IMG/VR virus record: IMGVR_UViG_2703719355_000022 | Span: 1-38,200 of that record | DNA: 38,200 nt | Direction: 5' to 3' (one strand) | Source of the DNA: a virus | Taxonomy: Duplodnaviria; Heunggongvirae; Uroviricota; Caudoviricetes | Notes under the pieces: model-generated | What the model saw: the letters and a program-made list of their open reading frames with translations, nothing else | Database searches by the model: none | What the model was told of the DNA's origin: nothing | Program-made: the position numbers and the translations under genes | Shown here: positions 3,009 to 37,313 of the stretch, in pieces | How positions within the stretch are numbered: position 1 is the stretch's first letter | Layout of the letters: each line of letters opens with the position of its first letter

Positions 3009-3218
3009 AATTGCGTTAGGCAGCGTAAGCAAGTTTCATAGTAGTTTCCTCTAAAATAATAAGTTCACTACTATTTATCAGAGAAAATTGTCTTACTATT
3101 GCATTCTCTATCTGGATGTGGGTATAGGCGGGATTGAATACGGCAAAACTGAAACATTCCACTACTGCAATAAATCACTAAACAATATAAAGAATATTGC
3201 AAGTGTGGAGTGGAACTA

Positions 3219-4709
3219 ATGCAAGATATTAAAATTCATTTTCAAGATTACAGTTTCGTTAAGGTTGATTGCTCTCCTTCTATCGGAATGGAATTAAGAG
3301 ATTATTTCTCGTTTGAGGTTGAAGGGGCTAGGTTTAGCCCCCGTTACAAGTATTCTGGCTGGGATGGACGAATAAGACTGTTTACGCATGAAAACACCCT
3401 ACCAATTGGACTATTAAAAACGTTGGGTGTCTTTGTTAAAAATATGGGCTATTCAGTCTGGATTGACCCGCGATTGCTTGAGAAGGAAGATGTAACCAAA
3501 GACGCGATTAATGAATGGATTGATTCCCTAGAAGTGTATTCCGGTTCCAATAAAATCAATCCTTACTGGTATCAGCGTGAAGCAGTCTTTCTGGGTATTC
3601 ATAATCGCCGTAGAATGCTGGTTCTTCCTACCAGTGCCGGAAAGTCATTGATTGCTTGTATGCTGTCTCGCTGGTACTTAGAGCATTACACCGGAAAAAT
3701 TCTAATCATTGTTCCGACTACATCGCTAGTGGTTCAAATGAGGGATGATTTCATCGATTATAGGCTATTCCCTTATGAAGCAATTCATACAATGATGAGT
3801 GGTAGCGGGAAACATCCGGGAGATAGGCTAATCACTGTTTCAACATGGCAATCAGCTTGCAAGATGCCTCCTGAATGGTTCCGACAATATGGAATGTTGA
3901 TAGTTGATGAATCACATAAGGCTAGTGCCAAAAATATTACCAATATCATCAATGGAATGAATCATTGCCAGTTCAAAATCGGTATGACTGGTTCCCCGAA
4001 AGAATCAAAATGCCATTTAATGCAGTATGTCGGGCTTTTCGGTGATATTTCTAAGATCGTTAGCATTGACCGCCTGATGGAAGAAGGTCAAGTGACGAAA
4101 CTGAAAATCAACTGTCTTTTCCTTCGTTATACCGATGAGGAATGTAGCGCGGTTAAGGGTAGAGAATATGCGGAAGAGATCAAGTATATTACGTCTAACC
4201 CACGACGTAATAAGTTTGCTTGTAATTTGGCGCTAAAACTCGCTAAGAAGGGCGAAAACGTATTCCTGATGTTCCGCAATACTAAGCACGGAAAACTTAT
4301 GTATGATGCGTTACAGAAGGTACACGACAAGGTTTATTATATTGACGGTGGAGTTAAGACAGAAGAACGAGACGAGTTCAAAAAATTAGCGGAAGGGGAA
4401 ACAGGGATCATTTGCGTTGCATCCTATGGTGTGTTCTCTACTGGTGTTTCTATCAAGAACTTGCACCATGTTATTTTCGGGCATCCAGTTAAAGAATCAA
4501 CCATTGTTAGACAGAGTATCGGTCGTGCATTGCGCAAACATGGTTCTAAGGATATTGCTACCGTTTGGGATCTTATAGATCATCTGTGTATATTCGGTCG
4601 TAACGGAAAAATCAAGCATAAAAATTATGCGGTAAAACATGCACTTGAGAGAATCCGCTATTATTTGACCGACAAGTTCAGCTATGCAACTAAAACAATT
4701 GCTATATAA
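3219..4709 (+). CDS. uvsW: UvsW-like superfamily-2 DNA helicase
   Basis: N-terminus MQDIKIHFQDYSFVKVDCS...GWDGRIRL and motifs LVLPTSAGKS (Walker A-like), IVDESH (DExH), VASYGVFSTG, WDLIDH match my recollection of T4 UvsW along the whole length; ATG at 3219 with GGAG upstream. Confidence 0.85.
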   Translation: MQDIKIHFQDYSFVKVDCSPSIGMELRDYFSFEVEGARFSPRYKYSGWDGRIRLFTHENTLPIGLLKTLGVFVKNMGYSVWIDPRLLEKEDVTKDAINEWIDSLEVYSGSNKINPYWYQREAVFLGIHNRRRMLVLPTSAGKSLIACMLSRWYLEHYTGKILIIVPTTSLVVQMRDDFIDYRLFPYEAIHTMMSGSGKHPGDRLITVSTWQSACKMPPEWFRQYGMLIVDESHKASAKNITNIINGMNHCQFKIGMTGSPKESKCHLMQYVGLFGDISKIVSIDRLMEEGQVTKLKINCLFLRYTDEECSAVKGREYAEEIKYITSNPRRNKFACNLALKLAKKGENVFLMFRNTKHGKLMYDALQKVHDKVYYIDGGVKTEERDEFKKLAEGETGIICVASYGVFSTGVSIKNLHHVIFGHPVKESTIVRQSIGRALRKHGSKDIATVWDLIDHLCIFGRNGKIKHKNYAVKHALERIRYYLTDKFSYATKTIAI

Positions 4710-26337: not shown

Positions 26338-28266
26338 TTAAAAGTTATTTACCCACCCACCACGACGCACAGGACGCGCCATAGGACGACGATTAGGTTT
26401 GTGATGAGTGATTGGCTTAGTTTCTTCGATTTGCTCGTTAGAATGTGATTTAGGAGCTTCTACGGTTGCTTCTGGTTCACGATTCAGCTTTTCTTTCATT
26501 GCAATGAGCTTATCCCATGACATTTTTGAAAGAACATAGCGAGAAGCCGCATAGCTATAAACCAGACAGTCGAGCGCCTCGTTTCGTGTCGCACCTGGAT
26601 TTTTTACCCAACGTGTTCCAGTAACAGTACGCTTGATGGATTCACTCAAAAGCTGATCGAGATAATCATCAGGAACGGTTTCTGATATCTCTAAACCAAT
26701 ATGAGGGTTTTCTTTCAAGTTGCGTGTTAATAGCTCACGAATAGCCGTTTTACCCACGTTAACGCCCAACATAAGCAACTCATGACCGCCCGTGGTAGTT
26801 GGTTTCACTGGAATGATTGGAGCAGTACCAGATGAACTACCTTTGATTGCGTGTAAGTTCTTCCACTTACCACCGCAAATACGGTATCCGGCTTGAGTGA
26901 ATCGACCGTTCGATGTATCAAGGAAGCTGGCGAGCATAGGAACACGATCACCCGATACAGTAGTAAATTTGGTTTTATGGAAGTTGATTAATCTGTCCCA
27001 TACAGGAGATTCATATCGTTCACAGTTATGGTCGTAAAAGCTGCGATGATCCAGAATATAAATCTTATCCTTTGCCACGCCCATGATCGTAGTTTCTGCG
27101 CGATCTAATTGCTGGTCAGTACCCGCACACAAGAAAATCACGTCATCAGGGATATTCTCGATAGAAACATCTGTTTTAAGTTCTTCCAGTTCGTTTACTT
27201 CTACTGCCGTTTCCTGATCATCGTATACAGTGCCGAGAACGGTATTATAAAAACTTTGTAAATCAAATGTTTGCCACGCTTGAGAGAAGTCAGAGACACA
27301 TGCTTTGATAGAGCTAAAAGGTGAATATAGACGGCTGATCCAGAATCCTGCTACATCACTTTCACGGGTAGCTCTCCATTCACCTTGTGCAACCGCTCTA
27401 ATGCGATCCCCTTCTGACCAATCAGTCTGGCAATGAGGACACACATAACGGGCGCTTTCAACACATGGCAGATTGCGACCATCCTGATTTTTCCACTCGA
27501 ACTTAACATTTTCCCACTCGATCACCTGGTGTTTCCCGCAATGCGGACAAGGAACAAAGAATTTACGCTGATCACTTGATAACCATTGTTGATTAATCGG
27601 TCCCAGCTTAGTGGTCGGGGTACTGGAAACGATAATTCTTGCTTCATCCCCGAAAGTGGTTGCGCGGTTAGCCGCAAGTGCAATCGGATCGCCCTCTTCA
27701 CTAGCACTGGCAGCATCACATTCATCGAGCAGAATCAACGGGCTGGTTTTTGAACGCAAGGTTGATGGGCTAGTAAGCGATACCATGTAAAGAAAATGAT
27801 TAGTCTTAAGCTGAATCTGACTATTGTTATTAACAGCGTTGCGATCATTCTTGTCGGTGATTGCTTCGCGTAATGCCGGACATGCTTCAATGGCTGGTCG
27901 GATCTTCCCGCTTAGGTACTGAGCGGTTTCCTTCGTGGTTGCTTGGCCTATGATGATATTGCTGGGATCGTTAGCTATCTTATTGAATAATATACCATTA
28001 AGGATGGAAGTTTTGCCGATCTGGGCACTTGTACAAAAAATGTACTTTTTCTTATTCTCTAAGAAAGGAGCATCAATCATGCCTTTCTGAAAGCTGGTTA
28101 ATTTAATTTTAGCGCCAGCTTGTGGTCCATCCACTAGGATCATGTTTTCCTCGCACCATTCAGATGGTAAACGCTTAATTGGCGGTCGGATATGTTTTGA
28201 TACTTCGTTAAAAATTCGCTTGAGTTTAAATTTATTTGAGAGTTTTTTCACCGTGATTATCCTCAT
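26338..28266 (-). CDS. terminase large subunit, lambda gpA family, 642 aa
   Basis: Motifs [29 protein letters not shown] and C-terminal RNEALDC recall lambda gpA; Walker A-like GKTS; first gene of the minus-strand operon. Confidence 0.9.
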
Positions 28267-28321: not shown

Positions 28322-28924
28322 ATGCTAATTAATCAGCAACAAAGAGATGAATTAGAATTAGCCTTGTCTTGTACCGATCATGAATATCGTTTGCCAGTAA
28401 AACATAAGCACTTAAAGACTGATTACACAACATCCGGTTTTAGCCGTGAGGAAGCGAAAGAGATTTTAATAGAATTTTACCGTGATAATGGTTATACAGA
28501 CGTTCACAACTTCTTTAAGAAGCATAGAACATCACATACAGAGTTTCGGAGAGTCCGAGATTGGTTTGATTTTGATATCAAGCGTTATTATCGCATTGAT
28601 GACGGTCCTATCTATCGGTTGCAGTGGAAGCCGATCCGAGAAGTGTTGAAACAGAAGAGATTGAATCACGCAATTACACGCTATCGTAACGTGGCTTTCA
28701 AGAAAGGCTATGGTGATACAAGGGAACTATTCGTTGAACTAGCTAACGTGAAATATAGCCACTATTACAACGATCCTACAGGGTTCTTCGAAGTGCTTCG
28801 CAAGGTTGATATTAGTCGGGGTACATATTATTCACGGCTGAGGAAGTACGGGATTAAGGCAGAGTTCTTTATGTCGGTTGACGACTCACCCATGTTCAAG
28901 ATAAAATCTAAGTCCTCTAAATAA
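28322..28924 (+). CDS. hypothetical basic protein with two helix-turn-helix-like repeats, 200 aa
   Basis: AAGGGGG ribosome-binding motif; two internally similar segments (EILIEFYRDNGY...FRRVRDWF and ELFVELANVKY...YSRLRKYG); Arg/Lys/Tyr-rich. Confidence 0.4.
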   Translation: MLINQQQRDELELALSCTDHEYRLPVKHKHLKTDYTTSGFSREEAKEILIEFYRDNGYTDVHNFFKKHRTSHTEFRRVRDWFDFDIKRYYRIDDGPIYRLQWKPIREVLKQKRLNHAITRYRNVAFKKGYGDTRELFVELANVKYSHYYNDPTGFFEVLRKVDISRGTYYSRLRKYGIKAEFFMSVDDSPMFKIKSKSSK

Positions 28925-28959: not shown

Positions 28960-29187
28960 ATGACTACTAAAGCTACTCGCGGTCGCCCTGCCCGTTTTAA
29001 CGCTGAACAGATGGCTGATATTGCCTACGCTTACTATACAGCGGATCGTGGTAAGGAAGCGAAAGAACAGATTCTTAGTGAACATGGGATCTCAATCGCC
29101 CAATTCTATAAGAATATGAAGAAGTTAGACATTAAATTCTATGTTCAGATCGGTGATGGTCAGATCGTAGAAGCAACAGGTTTTTGA
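28960..29187 (+). CDS. small DNA-binding protein with N-terminal GRP motif resembling small-terminase N-terminal domains, 75 aa
   Basis: GGAGG 7 nt upstream of ATG at 28960; N-terminus TRGRPARFNAEQMADI resembles the GRPxxYxPE start of some small-terminase DNA-binding domains; too short for a complete small terminase. Confidence 0.4.
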   Translation: MTTKATRGRPARFNAEQMADIAYAYYTADRGKEAKEQILSEHGISIAQFYKNMKKLDIKFYVQIGDGQIVEATGF

Positions 29188-31400: not shown

Positions 31401-31868
31401 TTACAGCATGTCTAAGCCTTCATCGTAGCCGTAGAAGCCATTCTGAGAAGAGAAACAGATTGGCGCGTAGTCGTCGTCATCTTCGTCTTGTTCATCTTCT
31501 TCTGGGGCTTCCTGAGCGGTTTCTTTGCCGTAGTTAAACATTGCTTCATCCAGTTCATAGACAGTAACGAAGCTCCCCAGGTCAATGTCACCGGAACGGA
31601 CTTCAAACGGAAGATCATCACGAACAATAATTGCTGGTAGATTCTGGTACTTTAAGCGTTCTTCATCGGTGAAGACGTTAACAACAATGGTCGGCTTCTT
31701 ATTACGGCAAAACGCATACCATGCACTAGAGAAATGGGATTCATCAGAGTTGAAAAGGATGTTATAACCACGTTCACGGAACATCTTCATTAACTTGTCA
31801 TTGTGAAAGCTATCAGAATCCAGACCCAGAAGGATAAAAGGAGTAGTGGTAGTCATTTTATGGTTCAT
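31401..31868 (-). CDS. hypothetical acidic protein, 155 aa
   Basis: GAGGA ribosome-binding motif; C-terminal third very acidic (EEDEQDEDDDDY); no recognised domain. Confidence 0.45.
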   Translation of the reverse strand: MNHKMTTTTPFILLGLDSDSFHNDKLMKMFRERGYNILFNSDESHFSSAWYAFCRNKKPTIVVNVFTDEERLKYQNLPAIIVRDDLPFEVRSGDIDLGSFVTVYELDEAMFNYGKETAQEAPEEDEQDEDDDDYAPICFSSQNGFYGYDEGLDML

Positions 31869-32153
31869 AGTGGAAATCCTCTAAAAGAAAGTGAATCAAT
31901 CTAATATTATTTATAAAGAGAAAATTCTTGTTATTATGGAAAGAGTGGTCTGGTAGAGTCCAAAACTGGTCTGTACTTGAAAGGTGATTGGATTCAGTCG
32001 GGCTAGCCCTCCTTCATAGATTTGATTAAATCATCACCAAAACGAAGAAGTATCTTTATAATATAAGAATCTTTCTTTTGTAGAAATAATAATCGAACAA
32101 GATGGACGCTCCCTGAGCGTCTGCGAAGCATATCTAATTCCTTCCAGTATCAT

Positions 32154-32242
32154 CAAAGTGATCTAGAATCAGTTTGTTTTAAAGTGATTGTAATACCTTT
32201 ATCTTGGAAGTGATTTAACTACCATCTTCAAAGTGATCTTGA
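32154..32242 (+). repeat. four direct copies of AAGTGAT(Y)T spaced 24-26 bp
   Basis: GTGAT cores at 32158, 32184, 32209, 32233; outer copies are the near-identical 19-mers TCAAAGTGATCT(A/T)GAATCA. Confidence 0.6.
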
Positions 32243-32316
32243 ATCATCATGTTAAAATCCCTTCCTGAATGATTCGAAGCAGATTACTCGCGCCCCGCAG
32301 GGCGCATAATATCTTT

Positions 32317-32354
32317 GTAGGTATATTGGTTTGATGGTATGTAGGTATATTGGT
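32317..32354 (+). repeat. direct repeat GTAGGTATATTGGT x2 (24-bp period)
   Basis: Identical 14-mers at 32317-32330 and 32341-32354; preceded by palindrome GCGCCC-CGCA-GGGCGC at 32290-32305. Confidence 0.6.
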
Positions 32355-32408
32355 CTGTAGGTCTGGATCGCTTCTAAGCCCCGTCATTACTGGTTTCCCC
32401 ACTTTGAA

Positions 32409-32662
32409 ACGGGGACGGGAAAGAGACGGGGAAGGGATACCACGGGGACAGGTCGGGGATAACATGGGGATGATACGGGGACACCACGGGGAAAGCATTT
32501 AAAATCATATCCTTACATAAGAATACGCATCTAATACCGGGGATTTTACGCGGGGATGGCGGGGAAACTACCCTAATCCGGGGGATTTTGCTTCCAAAAC
32601 GGGGATGAACGCGGGGACGGTGACGGGGATACATCTTCTAAAGTGGGGATATCGCGGGGAAA
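32409..32662 (+). repeat. G-rich array of at least 16 same-orientation CGGGGA motifs, first seven largely phased at 11 bp
   Basis: GGGGA starts at 32411, 32428, 32444, 32455, 32466, 32477, 32488, 32539, 32552, 32561, 32581, 32601, 32613, 32625, 32645, 32656; flanked downstream by an AT-rich stretch. Confidence 0.8.
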
Positions 32663-32865
32663 CCTTTAAATTCATTCAAATATTTTGATAGAAAATTCTT
32701 GTATATTATTTAACCAAAAAATCATCAAAAATCGCTGTAACTTAATGATTTAAAAGGGATTATCAAAAGGTCGCCGTGCTATAATAGGTTATAAAGGTTG
32801 ATAATCATTATTCGCCATTTTCACACAAAAATTTTGATAGCCTTTTCTCGCTTGGGTCAAGTGTG

Positions 32866-32894
32866 TTGACTTCTGTCAAGGATTATTTTATACT
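32866..32894 (+). promoter_or_regulatory. sigma70-type promoter (TTGACT-17-TATACT) reading into the plus-strand early genes
   Basis: -35 at 32866-32871, -10 at 32889-32894; flanked by GTCAA/TTGAC half-sites at 32856-32879. Confidence 0.55.
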
Positions 32895-33029
32895 TTTTCT
32901 CGTTGGTAGGGGTTGAAATTTTCAAAACAGTCCCCATATAGATGATAAGCAAGATTTTCTCTCTACTAAATACATGTGAGAAATGATTGTTCACTTCTGA
33001 AAATCTCCTGATTCACTGTTAATTAATAC

Positions 33030-33058
33030 AGCACTGGTTAGATATACAGTGCTTTTTT
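33030..33058 (+). terminator. hairpin plus T-run (AGCACTG-N10-CAGTGCT-TTTTTT); terminator or attenuator
   Basis: 7-bp stem followed by six T; a similar hairpin CCACTG-N11-CAGTGG-TTTT at 33117-33145. Confidence 0.5.
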
Positions 33059-33236
33059 GGTTGAATAATGTACGAATTGATTAATTATTAATCTTCTCTT
33101 TAGCAATTCGTGCTCCCACTGATCGGATATACAGTGGTTTTACAGGGTTTTCTGAAATGACTTTTATAAATAGAAGTATCAAGGGCGAAAAGCTCTTTTT
33201 ATGAGAAAAAATAATCCACATTGTAGAGGATGTAAC

Positions 33237-33419
33237 ATGGCCAGAACTGTTAAATTTACTCGCGAGATTATGTTAGAGAAAGCAAAACGCTACTTTGAAC
33301 TGACGCCGGGAGTGAGGATTGAAGAGTGGTTTAAAAATGAAGGCATCGATAAATCAACCTTCCATAAACTCTTAAAGAAATATGAAATCAAGGTGAAGAT
33401 TGAAGCTACCGTTTGGTAA
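33237..33419 (+). CDS. hypothetical small protein, 60 aa
   Basis: ATG at 33237 with GAGGA upstream (track start 33201 has no ribosome-binding motif); basic helical protein. Confidence 0.4.
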   Translation: MARTVKFTREIMLEKAKRYFELTPGVRIEEWFKNEGIDKSTFHKLLKKYEIKVKIEATVW

Positions 33420-33518: not shown

Positions 33519-34532
33519 ATGAAACAAAATAACTTCTCTATTACCGTTTACAGCAACACCGCAGACACCGCAAAATATCAGTACGATGCAGATATCGAAA
33601 TTCGTAACTATGGCAGCAACGAAGCCGACGAATTAACTATTGGCACTAATATTTATAAAGAAGAATCTATCGATTCTCTGTACACCACTCTCTATCATGC
33701 TGGTTCCGACTGGAAAAAAGAATACCGTGGTTTAGAGCGTAAGAAAGCTACTTTGAAAGCAATGGTTAAACCAGACCAGCGCGAAGTATATGCTATCGCT
33801 TACAAGAACGGCGACGAATCCTATGTAGTGTCTATCCTGCAAGATGAAGCTGGTAGCCTCTGGGGTAACATGATCCACGCTTCCCGCCGCGATGCTAAAG
33901 GCCGTTTCGTTAATGGTAAAGTTAAAAACTTTGCTCTGGCTTCTAGTGTTGTTGGTGCATGGTCTGATTGTGCTCACGGTGAGAAATTCAATATTTCTTT
34001 CTTCGTTTCCAACAAAGCTAAACTGAATGTTAACGCTGTTGATAAGGCAGTATGGAAAGAAACCACTAAAGAAAAAACCGTTTCCAACTACGAAGAAGAA
34101 TTACAGCAGCGTGATATTCAGATTCTGTCTGATGCGCATCGTGCTTTTGAGCAACGTCTTGCTGAGATGGAACGCAAATTCGCTATGCTGATGGAAGAAA
34201 ACATTAGTCTGAAAAAAGAAATTGAAGTTCTTGAAATCCGTGTAGAAGAACTGGAAGCAAAAGAAGTTAAAGCGCCGGAAGTTAAAGAAGTTGAAGCGGT
34301 AGCAGTAGTTCCGGCAGCTACCCAGGAAGAAGCGAAAGAAGAAAAAGAAGCACCGGAGGCGGTTACTGTTGATCAGCCGATTATCAAACCAGCGTTAACC
34401 GTAGTTTCTTGTGATATTTCTGATGCCAGCTTAAACAACCTTCTTGATGTAGAAGAAGGATATAAACCATATGTTCCAACCATTCCGGCTATGGATGAGA
34501 TGGACCGCGAATTACTTGATTTTGCAGCTTAA
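33519..34532 (+). CDS. hypothetical protein with central coiled coil and acidic C-terminal tail, 337 aa
   Basis: AAGGAA ribosome-binding motif; heptad-like region around residues 190-250; C-terminus MDEMDRELLDFAA; function unknown. Confidence 0.5.
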   Translation: MKQNNFSITVYSNTADTAKYQYDADIEIRNYGSNEADELTIGTNIYKEESIDSLYTTLYHAGSDWKKEYRGLERKKATLKAMVKPDQREVYAIAYKNGDESYVVSILQDEAGSLWGNMIHASRRDAKGRFVNGKVKNFALASSVVGAWSDCAHGEKFNISFFVSNKAKLNVNAVDKAVWKETTKEKTVSNYEEELQQRDIQILSDAHRAFEQRLAEMERKFAMLMEENISLKKEIEVLEIRVEELEAKEVKAPEVKEVEAVAVVPAATQEEAKEEKEAPEAVTVDQPIIKPALTVVSCDISDASLNNLLDVEEGYKPYVPTIPAMDEMDRELLDFAA

Positions 34533-34559: not shown

Positions 34560-35561
34560 ATGAACATTTACGCAATCGACAACAAAAAACTCAACAAAGA
34601 AGAAACTGAATCACTGGTAAACGTTCGTCTGACCTCCACCTTTGACGGTGGAGTTACCGCAAACTTCAAATTCACCGATAATCTTAACGGCGGTGATTAT
34701 TATCAGGAATTGTTTTCTATTCAGAATCCCCGCGCTAAAGATTCTGAGAATGTCATTAAAGAAATCATGAAACACGGTATCAAGCTGACGGTAGAAGAAC
34801 ATACTATGATTAACAGCTTCATCAATAAAACTGGTGATCGTCTGGTTTATTCTGTGGTTGGTTATGAACTTAGTGGGTTTTACGATGAAGAGAAGAAAGG
34901 CGTTGCTATGGTTGTGATTAGCCGTGGTGGCGTCGCTACTGTCTTCGCTTTTGGTAATGTTGTTCAGGGTACGCCGAAAACATCAAACGTTTATACGATC
35001 CGCATTAAAGAAAATAGCTATTGCCGTTATAATCTGGCTTTGGTGTCTACCGACGATAACAGCGTTGAACTTAGCGACATGAAATCCTACACCTTCCCTA
35101 TCGATGTGGAAGGCAATTTAGGAAAAACTGTGTTTCAATTCTATGTGACAAAACCTAAAGTTCCAGCATGTATTGAAGACCACGACCATCAAGTTTGTGC
35201 ATATAAAGCCAATCTGGAAGCGATTAAGGCCAAAGAGAAAGCAGAGCAGGAAGAACGGGATCGCCCACGTAAAGAAGCAGAGGCACAAGCAAAACAGCTT
35301 CTAGGCCGATTTAACAGCATGAAGACTAAGATCAAGAATGCTAAAACGTGGGAAGATGCGGTTAAGTTCTATCATCAAGCTAATATTCTTTTGGTTGAAG
35401 TAGAAGAAGCGCGGGATCTGTGGGCTAGCTTAGATAAGAAGTACGCGCAACGTAGATCGCCAGCAACCTTACAGCCGATTGATGAACTGTGCAAACTTCC
35501 TAAGCCAGAAATTAAACATGAAATTAAGAAAGCAAGACCTACCCTTCGTTTGGTTGCTTAA
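34560..35561 (+). CDS. hypothetical protein, 333 aa
   Basis: AGAGGAA ribosome-binding motif; Lys/Glu-rich helical C-terminus; no recognised domain. Confidence 0.5.
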   Translation: MNIYAIDNKKLNKEETESLVNVRLTSTFDGGVTANFKFTDNLNGGDYYQELFSIQNPRAKDSENVIKEIMKHGIKLTVEEHTMINSFINKTGDRLVYSVVGYELSGFYDEEKKGVAMVVISRGGVATVFAFGNVVQGTPKTSNVYTIRIKENSYCRYNLALVSTDDNSVELSDMKSYTFPIDVEGNLGKTVFQFYVTKPKVPACIEDHDHQVCAYKANLEAIKAKEKAEQEERDRPRKEAEAQAKQLLGRFNSMKTKIKNAKTWEDAVKFYHQANILLVEVEEARDLWASLDKKYAQRRSPATLQPIDELCKLPKPEIKHEIKKARPTLRLVA

Positions 35562-36278: not shown

Positions 36279-36836
36279 TTACGACACATCAAATTCATCG
36301 TCTTCTTGTTCTTCTTCCGGTTCTTCCTGCTTCACTTCCTCATCTTCTGAGTATTCATCGTAGGCATCAAGATCCGGTGAAATCATAATATCCCCGATCT
36401 CATTCAAACGAGCGGAAATGATATCCTTCAATGTTTCTTTCAAAGTACGCTGATCCGTTGCAGCTTCCATAATTTTTAGAGTGTCTACCGTCGCCATCTG
36501 CATCATGGTCTGGCGTACATCACCACAAAATCCGGCTAGAACTGTTTCTACATAACCTACAGGAATCAGATCATTTAGTTCGGTGCGGTTCTTAAGTTCG
36601 ATGGCGTCCGCCTCCCCTCTCGCCTTTCTTAATCGTTCTTGTTGGATCTGCGCTTGTACATCAACTTCCCTAAGTGGGCTGATTATGTTTTCAATTACCC
36701 AGGTGATTGCTCTATCCCGTGGACAACGGCGGGTATTCGTATTATACGGAAGACCACGATCACGCCATTTCTGAACAGCCGGAAGGGAATACCCATACAT
36801 TTTAGATAATTCGGTTAAAGTTACTTCTTGCGTCAT
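36279..36836 (-). CDS. terminase small subunit, lambda Nu1-like, 185 aa
   Basis: N-terminal TLTELSKMYGYSLPAVQKWRDRGLPY and central ARGEADAIELKNR...YVETVLAGFCGDV match my recollection of lambda Nu1; ATG at 36836 with AGAGGA upstream; acidic C-terminus. Confidence 0.7.
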   Translation of the reverse strand: MTQEVTLTELSKMYGYSLPAVQKWRDRGLPYNTNTRRCPRDRAITWVIENIISPLREVDVQAQIQQERLRKARGEADAIELKNRTELNDLIPVGYVETVLAGFCGDVRQTMMQMATVDTLKIMEAATDQRTLKETLKDIISARLNEIGDIMISPDLDAYDEYSEDEEVKQEEPEEEQEDDEFDVS

Positions 36837-37169
36837 GAAACTATCCTCTGAGCTAAAAATATGCGTAATTGTATTTAGACGAAATACGCAATATAACGGC
36901 CTATAACGCAATTTAAGAAAATCCCATGTGACGGGGCGTTGAGAAGTGATTTAGCTCGTTGTAGGGCTTGTTTGGTGGCTTAACTAAACCAATTTGAAAA
37001 AGGCACAAGCGAGATTTAAACCGCGCCGGGCAAAACACGCCCTCTTTTACCACTTATCACAGCACCTTTCTGTTGTCAAGTCTTTTTTATCGAATATTTT
37101 AAATTTTTTCATCTTTTTTCTCGTGCATTCATCCGTTTTTTTCTCGGTCAAAATCAATGACTTGACCCG

Positions 37170-37197
37170 TTGACACTGATCCGGTCATCAATATAAT
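37170..37197 (+). promoter_or_regulatory. consensus sigma70 promoter (TTGACA-16-TATAAT) upstream of the lipoprotein gene
   Basis: -35 at 37170-37175, -10 at 37192-37197; GGAGG ribosome-binding motif before ATG at 37314. Confidence 0.6.
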
Positions 37198-37313
37198 CGG
37201 TCACACTTTGACCATGTAAGGTGTGTTTCAGATGTGAGGATTAACGATAGATATTTACATAAATAAAGATGTGGTTAATCCATTCATCAATTTAATTCTC
37301 TGGAGGATATTCT

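Follow-up and report, generated by a model that had tools for sequence, protein, structure and literature searches.

The stretch considered here (positions 32100-32360) lies in a window, meaning the whole 38,200-nt piece of DNA that was analysed, which represents a nearly complete ~37-kb Escherichia coli prophage. Its repeats and palindromes sit in a non-coding gap (31869-33236, ~1.33-1.37 kb) between two divergent early operons, the leftward one composed of genes for a 155-amino-acid (aa) protein, a 110-aa protein, and Rha, and the rightward one of genes for 60-aa, 337-aa, and 333-aa proteins. An equivalent gap of 1.27-1.5 kb is found in every relative, as judged from a comparison set of about 45 related prophage loci (L001-L045) and a nine-way alignment of prophages (A1). 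Three small minus-strand open reading frames in the gap (32003-32131, 32247-32498, and 32374-32634) were rejected as genes, being unconserved and made of DNA that is swapped between relatives. From left to right, the gap and its borders hold the following features.

31401 to 31868, minus strand: 155-aa orphan gene, the first of the leftward operon and the left border of the gap

32000 to 32009: hairpin GGGCTAGCCC, inside the conserved word CAGTCGGGC-loop-GCCCTCCT

32105 to 32129, plus strand: two adjacent mini-hairpins, GACGCTC-CCT-GAGCGTC (32105-32121) and GC-GAA-GC (GCGAAGC, 32123-32129)

32136 to 32144, minus strand: AATTCCTTC, a variant of the motif RAAGKGATY in inverted orientation

32153 to 32246, plus strand: four direct AAGTGAT copies, at 32156, 32182, 32208, and 32231

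32255 to 32264, minus strand: AAATCCCTTC, an inverted motif copy (AATCCCTTC, 32256-32264) that closes the cluster

32290 to 32305: hairpin GCGCCC-CGCA-GGGCGC, the left edge of a type-specific cassette

32316 to 32362, plus strand: three TGTAGGT repeats, comprising GTAGGTATATTGGT at 32317-32330 and 32341-32354 and a third TGTAGGT from 32356

32396 to 32662, plus strand: G-rich array of ~18 CGGGGA-type units at ~11-bp spacing, 13 of them exact copies

32665 to 32860: conserved AT-rich block (25-33% GC at 32650-32850) with two copies of AAAWATTTTGATAG and an extended -10 element, TGCTATAAT

32866 to 32894, plus strand: conserved rightward promoter, TTGACT-17-TATACT

up to 33236, plus strand: leader of ~330 nt before the 60-aa gene, with three hairpin-plus-T-run elements (~33026-33055, 33113-33140, and 33180-33198)

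33237 to 33419, plus strand: gene for the 60-aa helix-turn-helix (HTH)-like protein, whose alleles reassort independently of array type

33519 to 34532, plus strand: gene for the 337-aa orphan protein, the putative array-binding protein

The original prediction, made from the bare sequence, rested on four AAGTGAT copies spaced by 24-26 bp. All four are present on the plus strand, the actual intervals being 26, 26, and 23 bp and not 24-26. The outer two copies do belong to 19-mers, TCAAAGTGATCTAGAATCA (32153-32171) and TCAAAGTGATCTTGAATCA (32228-32246), which are equal at 18 of 19 positions and show TGAT-N5-ATCA symmetry. The word itself is not enriched in the window (9 occurrences against 7.1 expected). 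As for its clustering, at least four same-strand copies within 100 bp arose in none of 500 dinucleotide shuffles of 31869-32400 (maximum 3), and no 7-mer in the other 31.9 kb of the window exceeds three same-strand copies per 100 bp. AAGTGAT is one form of the broader motif RAAGKGATY, whose inverted form, AATCCCTTC, is one mismatch away from the reverse complement of GAAGTGATT. In total, six motif sites follow one another at ~20-26 bp, at 32136 (inverted), 32156, 32182, 32208, 32231, and 32257 (inverted). When AAGKGAT is counted on both strands, 7 of the 15 copies in the window fall inside the 1.37-kb gap, a 23-fold enrichment, and 2-6 copies are found in the gap of every relative, Salmonella loci included. 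Known consensus sequences were compared with the 19-mers by eye and rejected: for CRP, the left half matches the half-site GTGA and the right half is out of register, and those for Fur, TrpR, LexA, and the oriC 13-mer were likewise dismissed.

In the nine-way alignment, the flanks of the gap (31869-32100 and 32680-33236) are conserved and the middle is mosaic, with only 18% of positions invariant in 32100-32360. The invariant islands of the stretch are CGAAG (32124-32128), C.AAT.CCTT (32134-32143), AA.TGAT (32156-32162), and AAATCCCTT (32255-32263), the second of which marks the inverted variant at 32136. AAATCCCTTC is the best conserved word of the stretch, given that its AAATCCCTT portion is invariant in 9/9 aligned loci and that AATCCCTT is present in 8/9 specificity types, the Salmonella loci among them. 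The first AAGTGAT copy is nearly invariant in relatives, the remaining ones occurring only in the window, TO6, and L032, so that the four-copy arrangement is found in 3 of about 45 loci, and the whole 261-bp stretch in 1 of 5426 complete E. coli genomes. Across relatives, AAGTGAT copies range from 0 to 4 and are irregularly spaced, the usual complement of the motif being a single direct site and a single inverted one. A tandem duplication could account for the 30-nt direct repeat common to the outer copies, which lie 75 bp apart and are 83% identical, and the four-copy tandem is best read, from these alignments, as a rare and recent multiplication of a conserved site of which most relatives have only one. 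Neither copy number nor allele of AAGTGAT covaries with Rha, the 155-aa protein, the 60-aa protein, or the 333-aa product of the second gene. A 13-bp exact direct repeat, AGAAAATTCTTGT, at 31919-31931 and 32690-32702 brackets the variable middle of the gap, and a 34-bp insertion (31945-31978) with the internal repeat AGTGGTCTGGTA / AACTGGTCTGTA, located upstream of the 155-aa gene, is restricted to the window, TO6, and C325.

Three perfect palindromes had also been reported, and all are exact (32000-32009, 32105-32121, and 32290-32305). At the site of the 32105 pair, other alleles read GCAACC-GAA-GGTTGC with ATCCC-GAA-GGGAT (a variant of which has a GCA loop in the first hairpin), GGATGC-GTA-GCATCC with TCCGC-GAA-GCGGA, or GGACAC-GTA-GTGTCC with TCCAC-GAA-GTGGA. 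Between the latter two, the changes are compensatory in both hairpins (GGATGC/GCATCC vs GGACAC/GTGTCC and TCCGC/GCGGA vs TCCAC/GTGGA). Similarly, the equivalent of 32000-32009 is GGGC-TAAA-GCCC, GGGC-AAA-GCCC, or GGC-TTC-GCC in relatives, and that of 32290, shared by all G-type loci and L028, is replaced at the same place in other types by CGCC-GTA-GGCG, by GCCAC-GCA-GTGGC plus CGTC-GCA-GACG, or by GCGGC-GTA-GCCGC. The palindromes are thus conserved as hairpin-forming positions and not as sequences, the stems differing with pairing kept. Point differences among about 40 loci fall beside the stems, not inside, and G-T wobble variants, which would indicate the strand, were sought in the stems and not found, the stems being invariant within alleles. 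The window has a single copy of the 20-nt word CAGTCGGGC-loop-GCCCTCCT (31995-32013), and C- and S-type relatives (L011, L012, L029, and L031) have two, one near the 155-aa gene and one just before the array, which in those relatives bracket the shared module as a direct repeat.

Structure in this region goes beyond chance. The 271 nt from 32095 to 32365 fold better than 200/200 shuffles on both strands (z = -4.1 and -3.4), and of the ~15 perfect GC-rich hairpins with stems of at least 5 bp in 38 kb, two are within 200 bp here. Across 10 intergenic regions, c-GNA-g triloop hairpins number 23 on the plus strand and 10 on the minus strand, compared with 4 and 6, respectively, in the other 36.8 kb of the window; those on the plus strand lie to the left and those on the minus strand beside the array. 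Searches against Rfam on both strands gave no family match in the region, a sub-threshold ctRNA (counter-transcribed RNA) match lying outside it only. All told, the stretch is structured and under selection, and its at least three independent element classes, each with a conservation pattern of its own, fit the binding of several factors. As to conservation among relatives, which the original prediction had made one of its tests, a skeleton of two hairpin positions and RAAGKGATY / AATCCCTTC sites is family-wide, whereas the four-copy tandem and the palindrome sequences are not conserved.

The comparison further shows that the repeats and palindromes span two modules with different histories, 32100-32275, which accompanies every array type, and 32275-32360, which belongs to the type-specific cassette. 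The direct repeat of GTAGGTATATTGGT, present twice as predicted, is part of the latter: TGTAGGT repeats are G-type specific in E. coli, their equivalents being two TGTAGGT copies in L027 and seven AAGCART copies in L028, and the TGTAGGT core resembles the GTGTAGG array of the commonest type. The G-rich array to the right consists of two blocks around an AT-rich spacer (32493-32537), which is promoter-like, a promoter scan giving GGGACA-16-TAAAAT at 32478-32505. Relatives have at least five other repeat types in place of the array, with these units.

GTGTAGG: C325, H2, and others, the commonest type

CAGGGGCAAAA: 266917_2, PEC41, and others

GGAATCYNGGGG: STEC1575 and the Salmonella loci L029 and L031

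ATCGCAAACAC: L027

CCTCCTAC: L028

In 37/37 loci, all those in which both the array and the gene are readable, the array type corresponds to the N-terminal domain of the 337-aa protein. Five types are covered by this match (G, T, C, S, and the L028 type), and L027, with protein P0013, provides one more. Between types, this domain is only 25-35% identical. The match is not simple linkage, because ~850 bp separate the array from the 337-aa gene and the intervening 60-aa gene reassorts, one of its alleles occurring with arrays of types T, C, and S and another with those of types G and S. No covariation with array type was observed for TerS, TerL, Rha, or the 155-, 110-, 200-, and 74-aa proteins, although the 155-aa gene is present in all relatives. 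Since array type covaries with the 337-aa protein alone, despite the reassortment of the 60-aa gene, we infer that this protein reads the array, and such covariation would be how an origin or an operator behaves.

The 337-aa protein is predicted to comprise a variable alpha+beta N-terminal domain, a ~60-residue coiled coil (approximately residues 190-250), an acidic linker, and a C-terminus whose last two residues are alanines (-AA). It has no match in Pfam, PHROGs, NCBIfam, or PADLOC, and tblastn against phages and plasmids returned nothing. Word-indexed and exhaustive HMMER searches retrieved prophage relatives only, and the protein matches neither a solved nor a predicted fold, a Foldseek search against BFVD having yielded nothing at E <= 0.001. 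Two AlphaFold runs gave predicted local distance difference test scores of 54 and 58. Most specificity types end in -AA (FAA, IAA, LAA, KAA, EAA, or YAA), ends that recall ssrA-like degradation tags for ClpXP, and by this analogy the protein may be unstable. The T-type homologue (L010 9169-10224, strain C325) ends in ~11 YA dipeptides, with a hexanucleotide repeat in the gene.

To the right of the array, the AT-rich block is conserved in all relatives, and the stretch is itself AT-rich in part, 32130-32260 having 30-40% GC. The two AAAWATTTTGATAG copies (32676-32688 and 32824-32836) are small palindromes, TCAAA-TAT-TTTGA, and together with the AGAAAATTCTTGT repeats could possibly serve as operators for a conserved regulator. 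The leader beyond the rightward promoter, which has no Rfam match, has the look of a series of terminators that antitermination would have to overcome. As expected for an autoregulated initiator, L027 and L028 have additional array units on either side of this promoter or after it.

When the window proteins were compared with family libraries, no recognisable replication initiator, helicase loader, or repressor was found, and therefore the origin and its initiator must hide among the orphan early genes. In this light, the stretch is possibly, at somewhat less than an even chance, the accessory, non-iteron half of an iteron-type replication origin or control region of a temperate E. coli phage. 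Several features of iteron origins are present. A tandem direct-repeat array lies directly to the right, with RAAGKGATY as a second, looser set; a conserved AT-rich region adjoins it; and a cognate element-encoded protein is indicated by covariation only, the genome encoding no other candidate initiator. The notion of a multi-protein regulatory or origin region survives in part: the DNA is non-coding, placed between divergent operons, contains at least three element classes, and neighbours an array that tracks one protein, but it is not one unit and its tandem is unconserved.

We further infer how such a region might work, the binding events, the replication function, and the use of single-stranded DNA included. 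The 337-aa protein would bind the 11-bp-phased array via its variable N-terminal domain, oligomerise through the coiled coil, and destabilise the neighbouring AT-rich DNA. The RAAGKGATY / AATCCCTTC sites would be bound by a factor common to the family, either a conserved phage HTH-like protein (200, 74, or 60 aa) or a host protein, and this binding would shape the DNA. The GC-rich mini-hairpin pair, mostly with c-GNA-g triloops, would be extruded when the region becomes single-stranded, and the extruded hairpins may signal priming or loading in the manner of the ssi hairpins of RSF1010 oriV or the complementary-strand origin of G4. The 32290 hairpin and the TGTAGGT repeats, as the left end of the type-specific cassette, would travel with the array. 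According to Hirao and colleagues, c-GNA-g and GCGNAGC reportedly form unusually stable DNA mini-hairpins. Mini-hairpins of this kind (GCGAAGC and CCGAAGG) are noted in a recent review at phage and plasmid replication initiation sites, such as G4 oric and RSF1010 ssiA (CCGAAGG), and also at N4 early promoters (PMC13037366).

A number of observations weigh against an iteron-type origin. The ~18 cores of 6 bp at 11-bp spacing are unlike classical iterons of 17-22 bp, and an 11-bp-phased array resembles a centromere or an operator array equally well; many specificity types among near-identical phages are likewise the pattern of immunity regions. AAGTGAT copy number and site spacing are not conserved, and therefore the phased tandem cannot be essential. 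Host-factor sites are lacking, with no consensus for integration host factor (IHF) in 31869-33236 and no perfect DnaA box in 32100-32360, the only near-DnaA box being TAATCCACA at 33212. The 337-aa protein, as the putative initiator, falls in no known Rep, O, or helicase family. The GNA signature of the window itself is weak, consisting of one GCGAAGC with a 2-bp stem (32123) and one CGCA loop; heptamers of the GCGNAGC type are common there. The hairpins might also function at the RNA level rather than as DNA. It is because of the missing DnaA and IHF sites, the lack of a homology tie to replication, the suitability of the array as an operator or centromere, and the weak GNA signature that an origin is proposed here only tentatively. 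To our knowledge, host-factor sites are not universal at iteron origins, lambda ori and SaPI (Staphylococcus aureus pathogenicity island) ori being without DnaA boxes.

The same features can be accommodated by a transcriptional control or immunity region, a somewhat doubtful explanation but the main rival to an origin, in which the 337-aa protein would be a type-specific repressor or autoregulator and the array the bank of operators on which it acts, a second, conserved regulator of the divergent early promoters would use the AAGTGAT / AATCCCTTC sites as operators or upstream sites, and the hairpins would act in a long 5' leader of the leftward mRNA (in stability, processing, or antitermination). 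The position between divergent early operons speaks for it, as do the strong conserved promoter and the leader with three terminator-like hairpins immediately to the right, and the array units at the rightward promoter of L027 and L028 suit it as well. Many interchangeable specificities in phages that are otherwise ~90% identical are typical of immunity modules, and three paralogous HTH-like proteins are available as binders. The two hairpins, 0-1 nt apart, recall cis-acting antitermination RNAs such as HK022 put. However, overlap of type-specific repeats with the conserved promoter is confined to L027 and L028; the promoter at 32866-32894 is free of them in the window and in types G, T, and C, and the array ends ~200 bp upstream of the -35 element. 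In addition, scanning and reading of the alignment revealed no convincing conserved sigma-70 promoter inside 32100-32360 on either strand, the lack of an Rfam match on both strands gives no encouragement to an RNA element, and the predominance of c-GNA-g loops on one strand is a signature of DNA stability rather than of RNA.

Improbable, but pertinent to the tandem, is that the stretch is neutral mosaic DNA, the tandem a product of recent slippage or duplication, the short shared words recombination joints left by cassette swapping, and the copies functionless. This would suit the rarity of the four copies among the loci and complete genomes, the variable copy number (0-4) and irregular spacing in relatives, the 83% identical 30-nt repeat of the outer copies, the low proportion of invariant positions, and the 13-bp direct repeat (31919 and 32690) bracketing the variable middle. 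Nonetheless, the motif is 23-fold enriched and kept in every relative, including the distant Salmonella types; AAATCCCTT and the first AA.TGAT are invariant; and hairpin positions survive complete stem replacement, with compensatory changes. Neutral mosaicism can account for the additional AAGTGAT copies, though not for the conserved skeleton. A packaging or partition-type site, with the array and accessory sites wrapped by an oligomeric protein for terminase recognition or DNA positioning, is highly improbable. It draws on the 11-bp phasing in two blocks, which is reminiscent of the parC centromere of R1 and of certain small-terminase recognition sites, and on the unusual split of the terminase genes, TerS being 8 kb from TerL. 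Yet TerS and TerL alleles do not follow array type, the TerS of TO6 (G type) being 90% identical to T- and C-type TerS and only 55% to that of the window; the DNA upstream of TerS, which has a perfect IHF consensus at ~37150, is a better candidate for cos; no ParA, ParM, or TubZ motor gene is present in the window; and the element is an integrated prophage.

The proposed origin can be set beside several known systems, none of which it reproduces. Lambda O is an initiator whose N-terminal domain sets specificity and is joined by a flexible acidic linker to a C-terminal part engaged in interactions, and the lambda origin contains four 19-bp iterons inside the O gene. The prophage resembles lambda in having tandem repeats beside an AT-rich stretch and a palindrome, in the layout of the protein (N-terminal specificity, acidic linker, and C-terminal part), and in the paired exchange, between related phages, of origin specificity and initiator specificity. 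In contrast to lambda, its repeats are ~850 bp upstream of the gene and are ~18 cores of 6 bp at 11-bp spacing instead of four 19-bp iterons, there is no conserved P-like helicase loader, and in neither sequence nor fold does the 337-aa protein resemble O. With RSF1010 oriV (ssiA/ssiB) and the G4 complementary-strand origin, it shares iterons together with GC-rich mini-hairpins of the CCGAAGG / GCGAAGC type, which in relatives occupy both strands, the GNA loops being on the plus strand to the left and on the minus strand beside the array. Unlike RSF1010, the prophage encodes no RepB'-type or other dedicated primase and has no sequence similarity to ssiA/ssiB, and, of such hairpins, the window itself offers just a minimal GCGAAGC and a single hairpin with a CGCA loop.

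SaPI Rep and P4 alpha are helicases/primases with nucleoside triphosphatase (NTPase) motifs, and their origins consist of short iterons recognised by an island-specific protein. Many short repeats, two sets around an AT-rich segment, a strict one-to-one relation between repeat type and element-encoded protein, and several specificities per family are common to these origins and the prophage, whereas the 337-aa protein lacks NTPase motifs and any family match. The resemblance to R1 parC/ParR extends to 11-bp-phased repeats in two blocks flanking an AT-rich promoter-like spacer; the differences are the absence of a partition motor gene, a large coiled-coil protein instead of a small ribbon-helix-helix one, and the integrated state of the prophage. 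Accessory sites and hairpins beside an iteron-like array are known in kind; in this prophage family, the putative central DNA-binding protein is an orphan.

The gap and the 337-aa protein are the only place in this genome behaving like a specificity-determining protein-DNA pair and therefore offer a handle on how these phages replicate or are controlled. To such a pair, 32100-32275 supplies the type-independent part, namely the hairpin pair together with a single direct AAGTGAT and a single inverted AATCCCTTC. If the hairpins were single-stranded DNA signals in a temperate phage with double-stranded DNA, a mechanism known from single-stranded DNA phages and RSF1010 would be extended, and if the module were an origin, it would define a new initiator family operating without a DnaA box or a phage-encoded helicase loader. 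By comparison, ordinary promoter-operator DNA would have a value limited to the annotation of one prophage family. A more ambitious proposal, and a rather unlikely one, is an undescribed origin or control module combining an orphan-fold protein that reads 11-bp-phased repeats in at least six interchangeable specificities, a type-independent enhancer made of strand-biased c-GNA-g DNA mini-hairpins and RAAGKGATY sites, and, in the few TGTAGGT units next to the G-rich array, possible cross-type sites that would let a co-resident phage of the commonest (GTGTAGG) type communicate with this one.

The prophage family is present in 58 of 5426 complete E. coli genomes (~1%), and the region also occurs in 14 IMG/VR contigs, 14 metagenome contigs, and Salmonella assemblies. 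No cultured relative was found. A near-mode search of 50,697 phage records and 72,556 plasmids gave no DNA match to the region, and a distant-mode search gave only short, chance-like matches to T4-type phages. The prophage of the window is integrated in ycdX, which the TO6 copy likewise interrupts, and other copies interrupt hicB. Outside the early region, the recognisable genes include the following.

1248 to 2942: large serine recombinase (integrase)

3210 to 4709: UvsW-like helicase gene, adjoining the integrase, with UvsW_N, ResIII, and Helicase_C domains

26338 to 28266: gpA-type large terminase (TerL)

36279 to 36911: Nu1-like small terminase (TerS)

After the UvsW-like helicase gene come those for the endolysin, tail and head proteins, and the large terminase, and the Rha-family gene and TerS complete the set of recognisable genes. 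The UvsW-like enzyme is the sole helicase recognised in the window; because its gene is missing from the otherwise collinear TO6 prophage, it is regarded as accessory cargo and not as the replicative helicase.

Among the other early genes, the second rightward gene (333 aa; 34560-35561, with counterparts at L028 5058-5978 and L012 10331-11191) is found in some relatives only, and its product is modular: the N-terminal part varies, and the C-terminus, with RPTLRLVA as its last residues, is conserved. The 60-aa protein and those of 74 aa (28960-29187) and 200 aa (28322-28924, with two internal repeats) share an HTH-like motif, FTRE..A..Y...EGI..S.F.KL.KKY.IK. They likely constitute a small paralogous family of DNA-binding proteins and, judging from this motif, are candidate binders of the AAGTGAT-type sites. 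The family has no database match, a scan of representative genomes with the 60-aa protein was equally negative, and comparison of the 60-, 155-, and 200-aa proteins with PDB sequences returned no match.

TerS is located 8 kb from the gpA-type TerL, on the opposite side of the early region. The DNA upstream of it (36912-37300), which varies between relatives, contains a perfect IHF consensus, AATCAATGACTTG, at 37152-37164, and the vicinity of ~37150 is likely to be cos. Upstream of this gene, the recurrence of GAAGTGATTTA noted in the original prediction does exist (36943-36953), but it is unconserved at that position: the closest TerS relative reads GAAGGATGTTTTA, and TO6 is without a copy. 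By the estimate made here, ~0.07 chance recurrences are expected. This copy is regarded as unproven and probably unrelated to the cluster, chance being enough to explain it; two other relatives carry AAGTGAT upstream of TerS in a non-homologous context.

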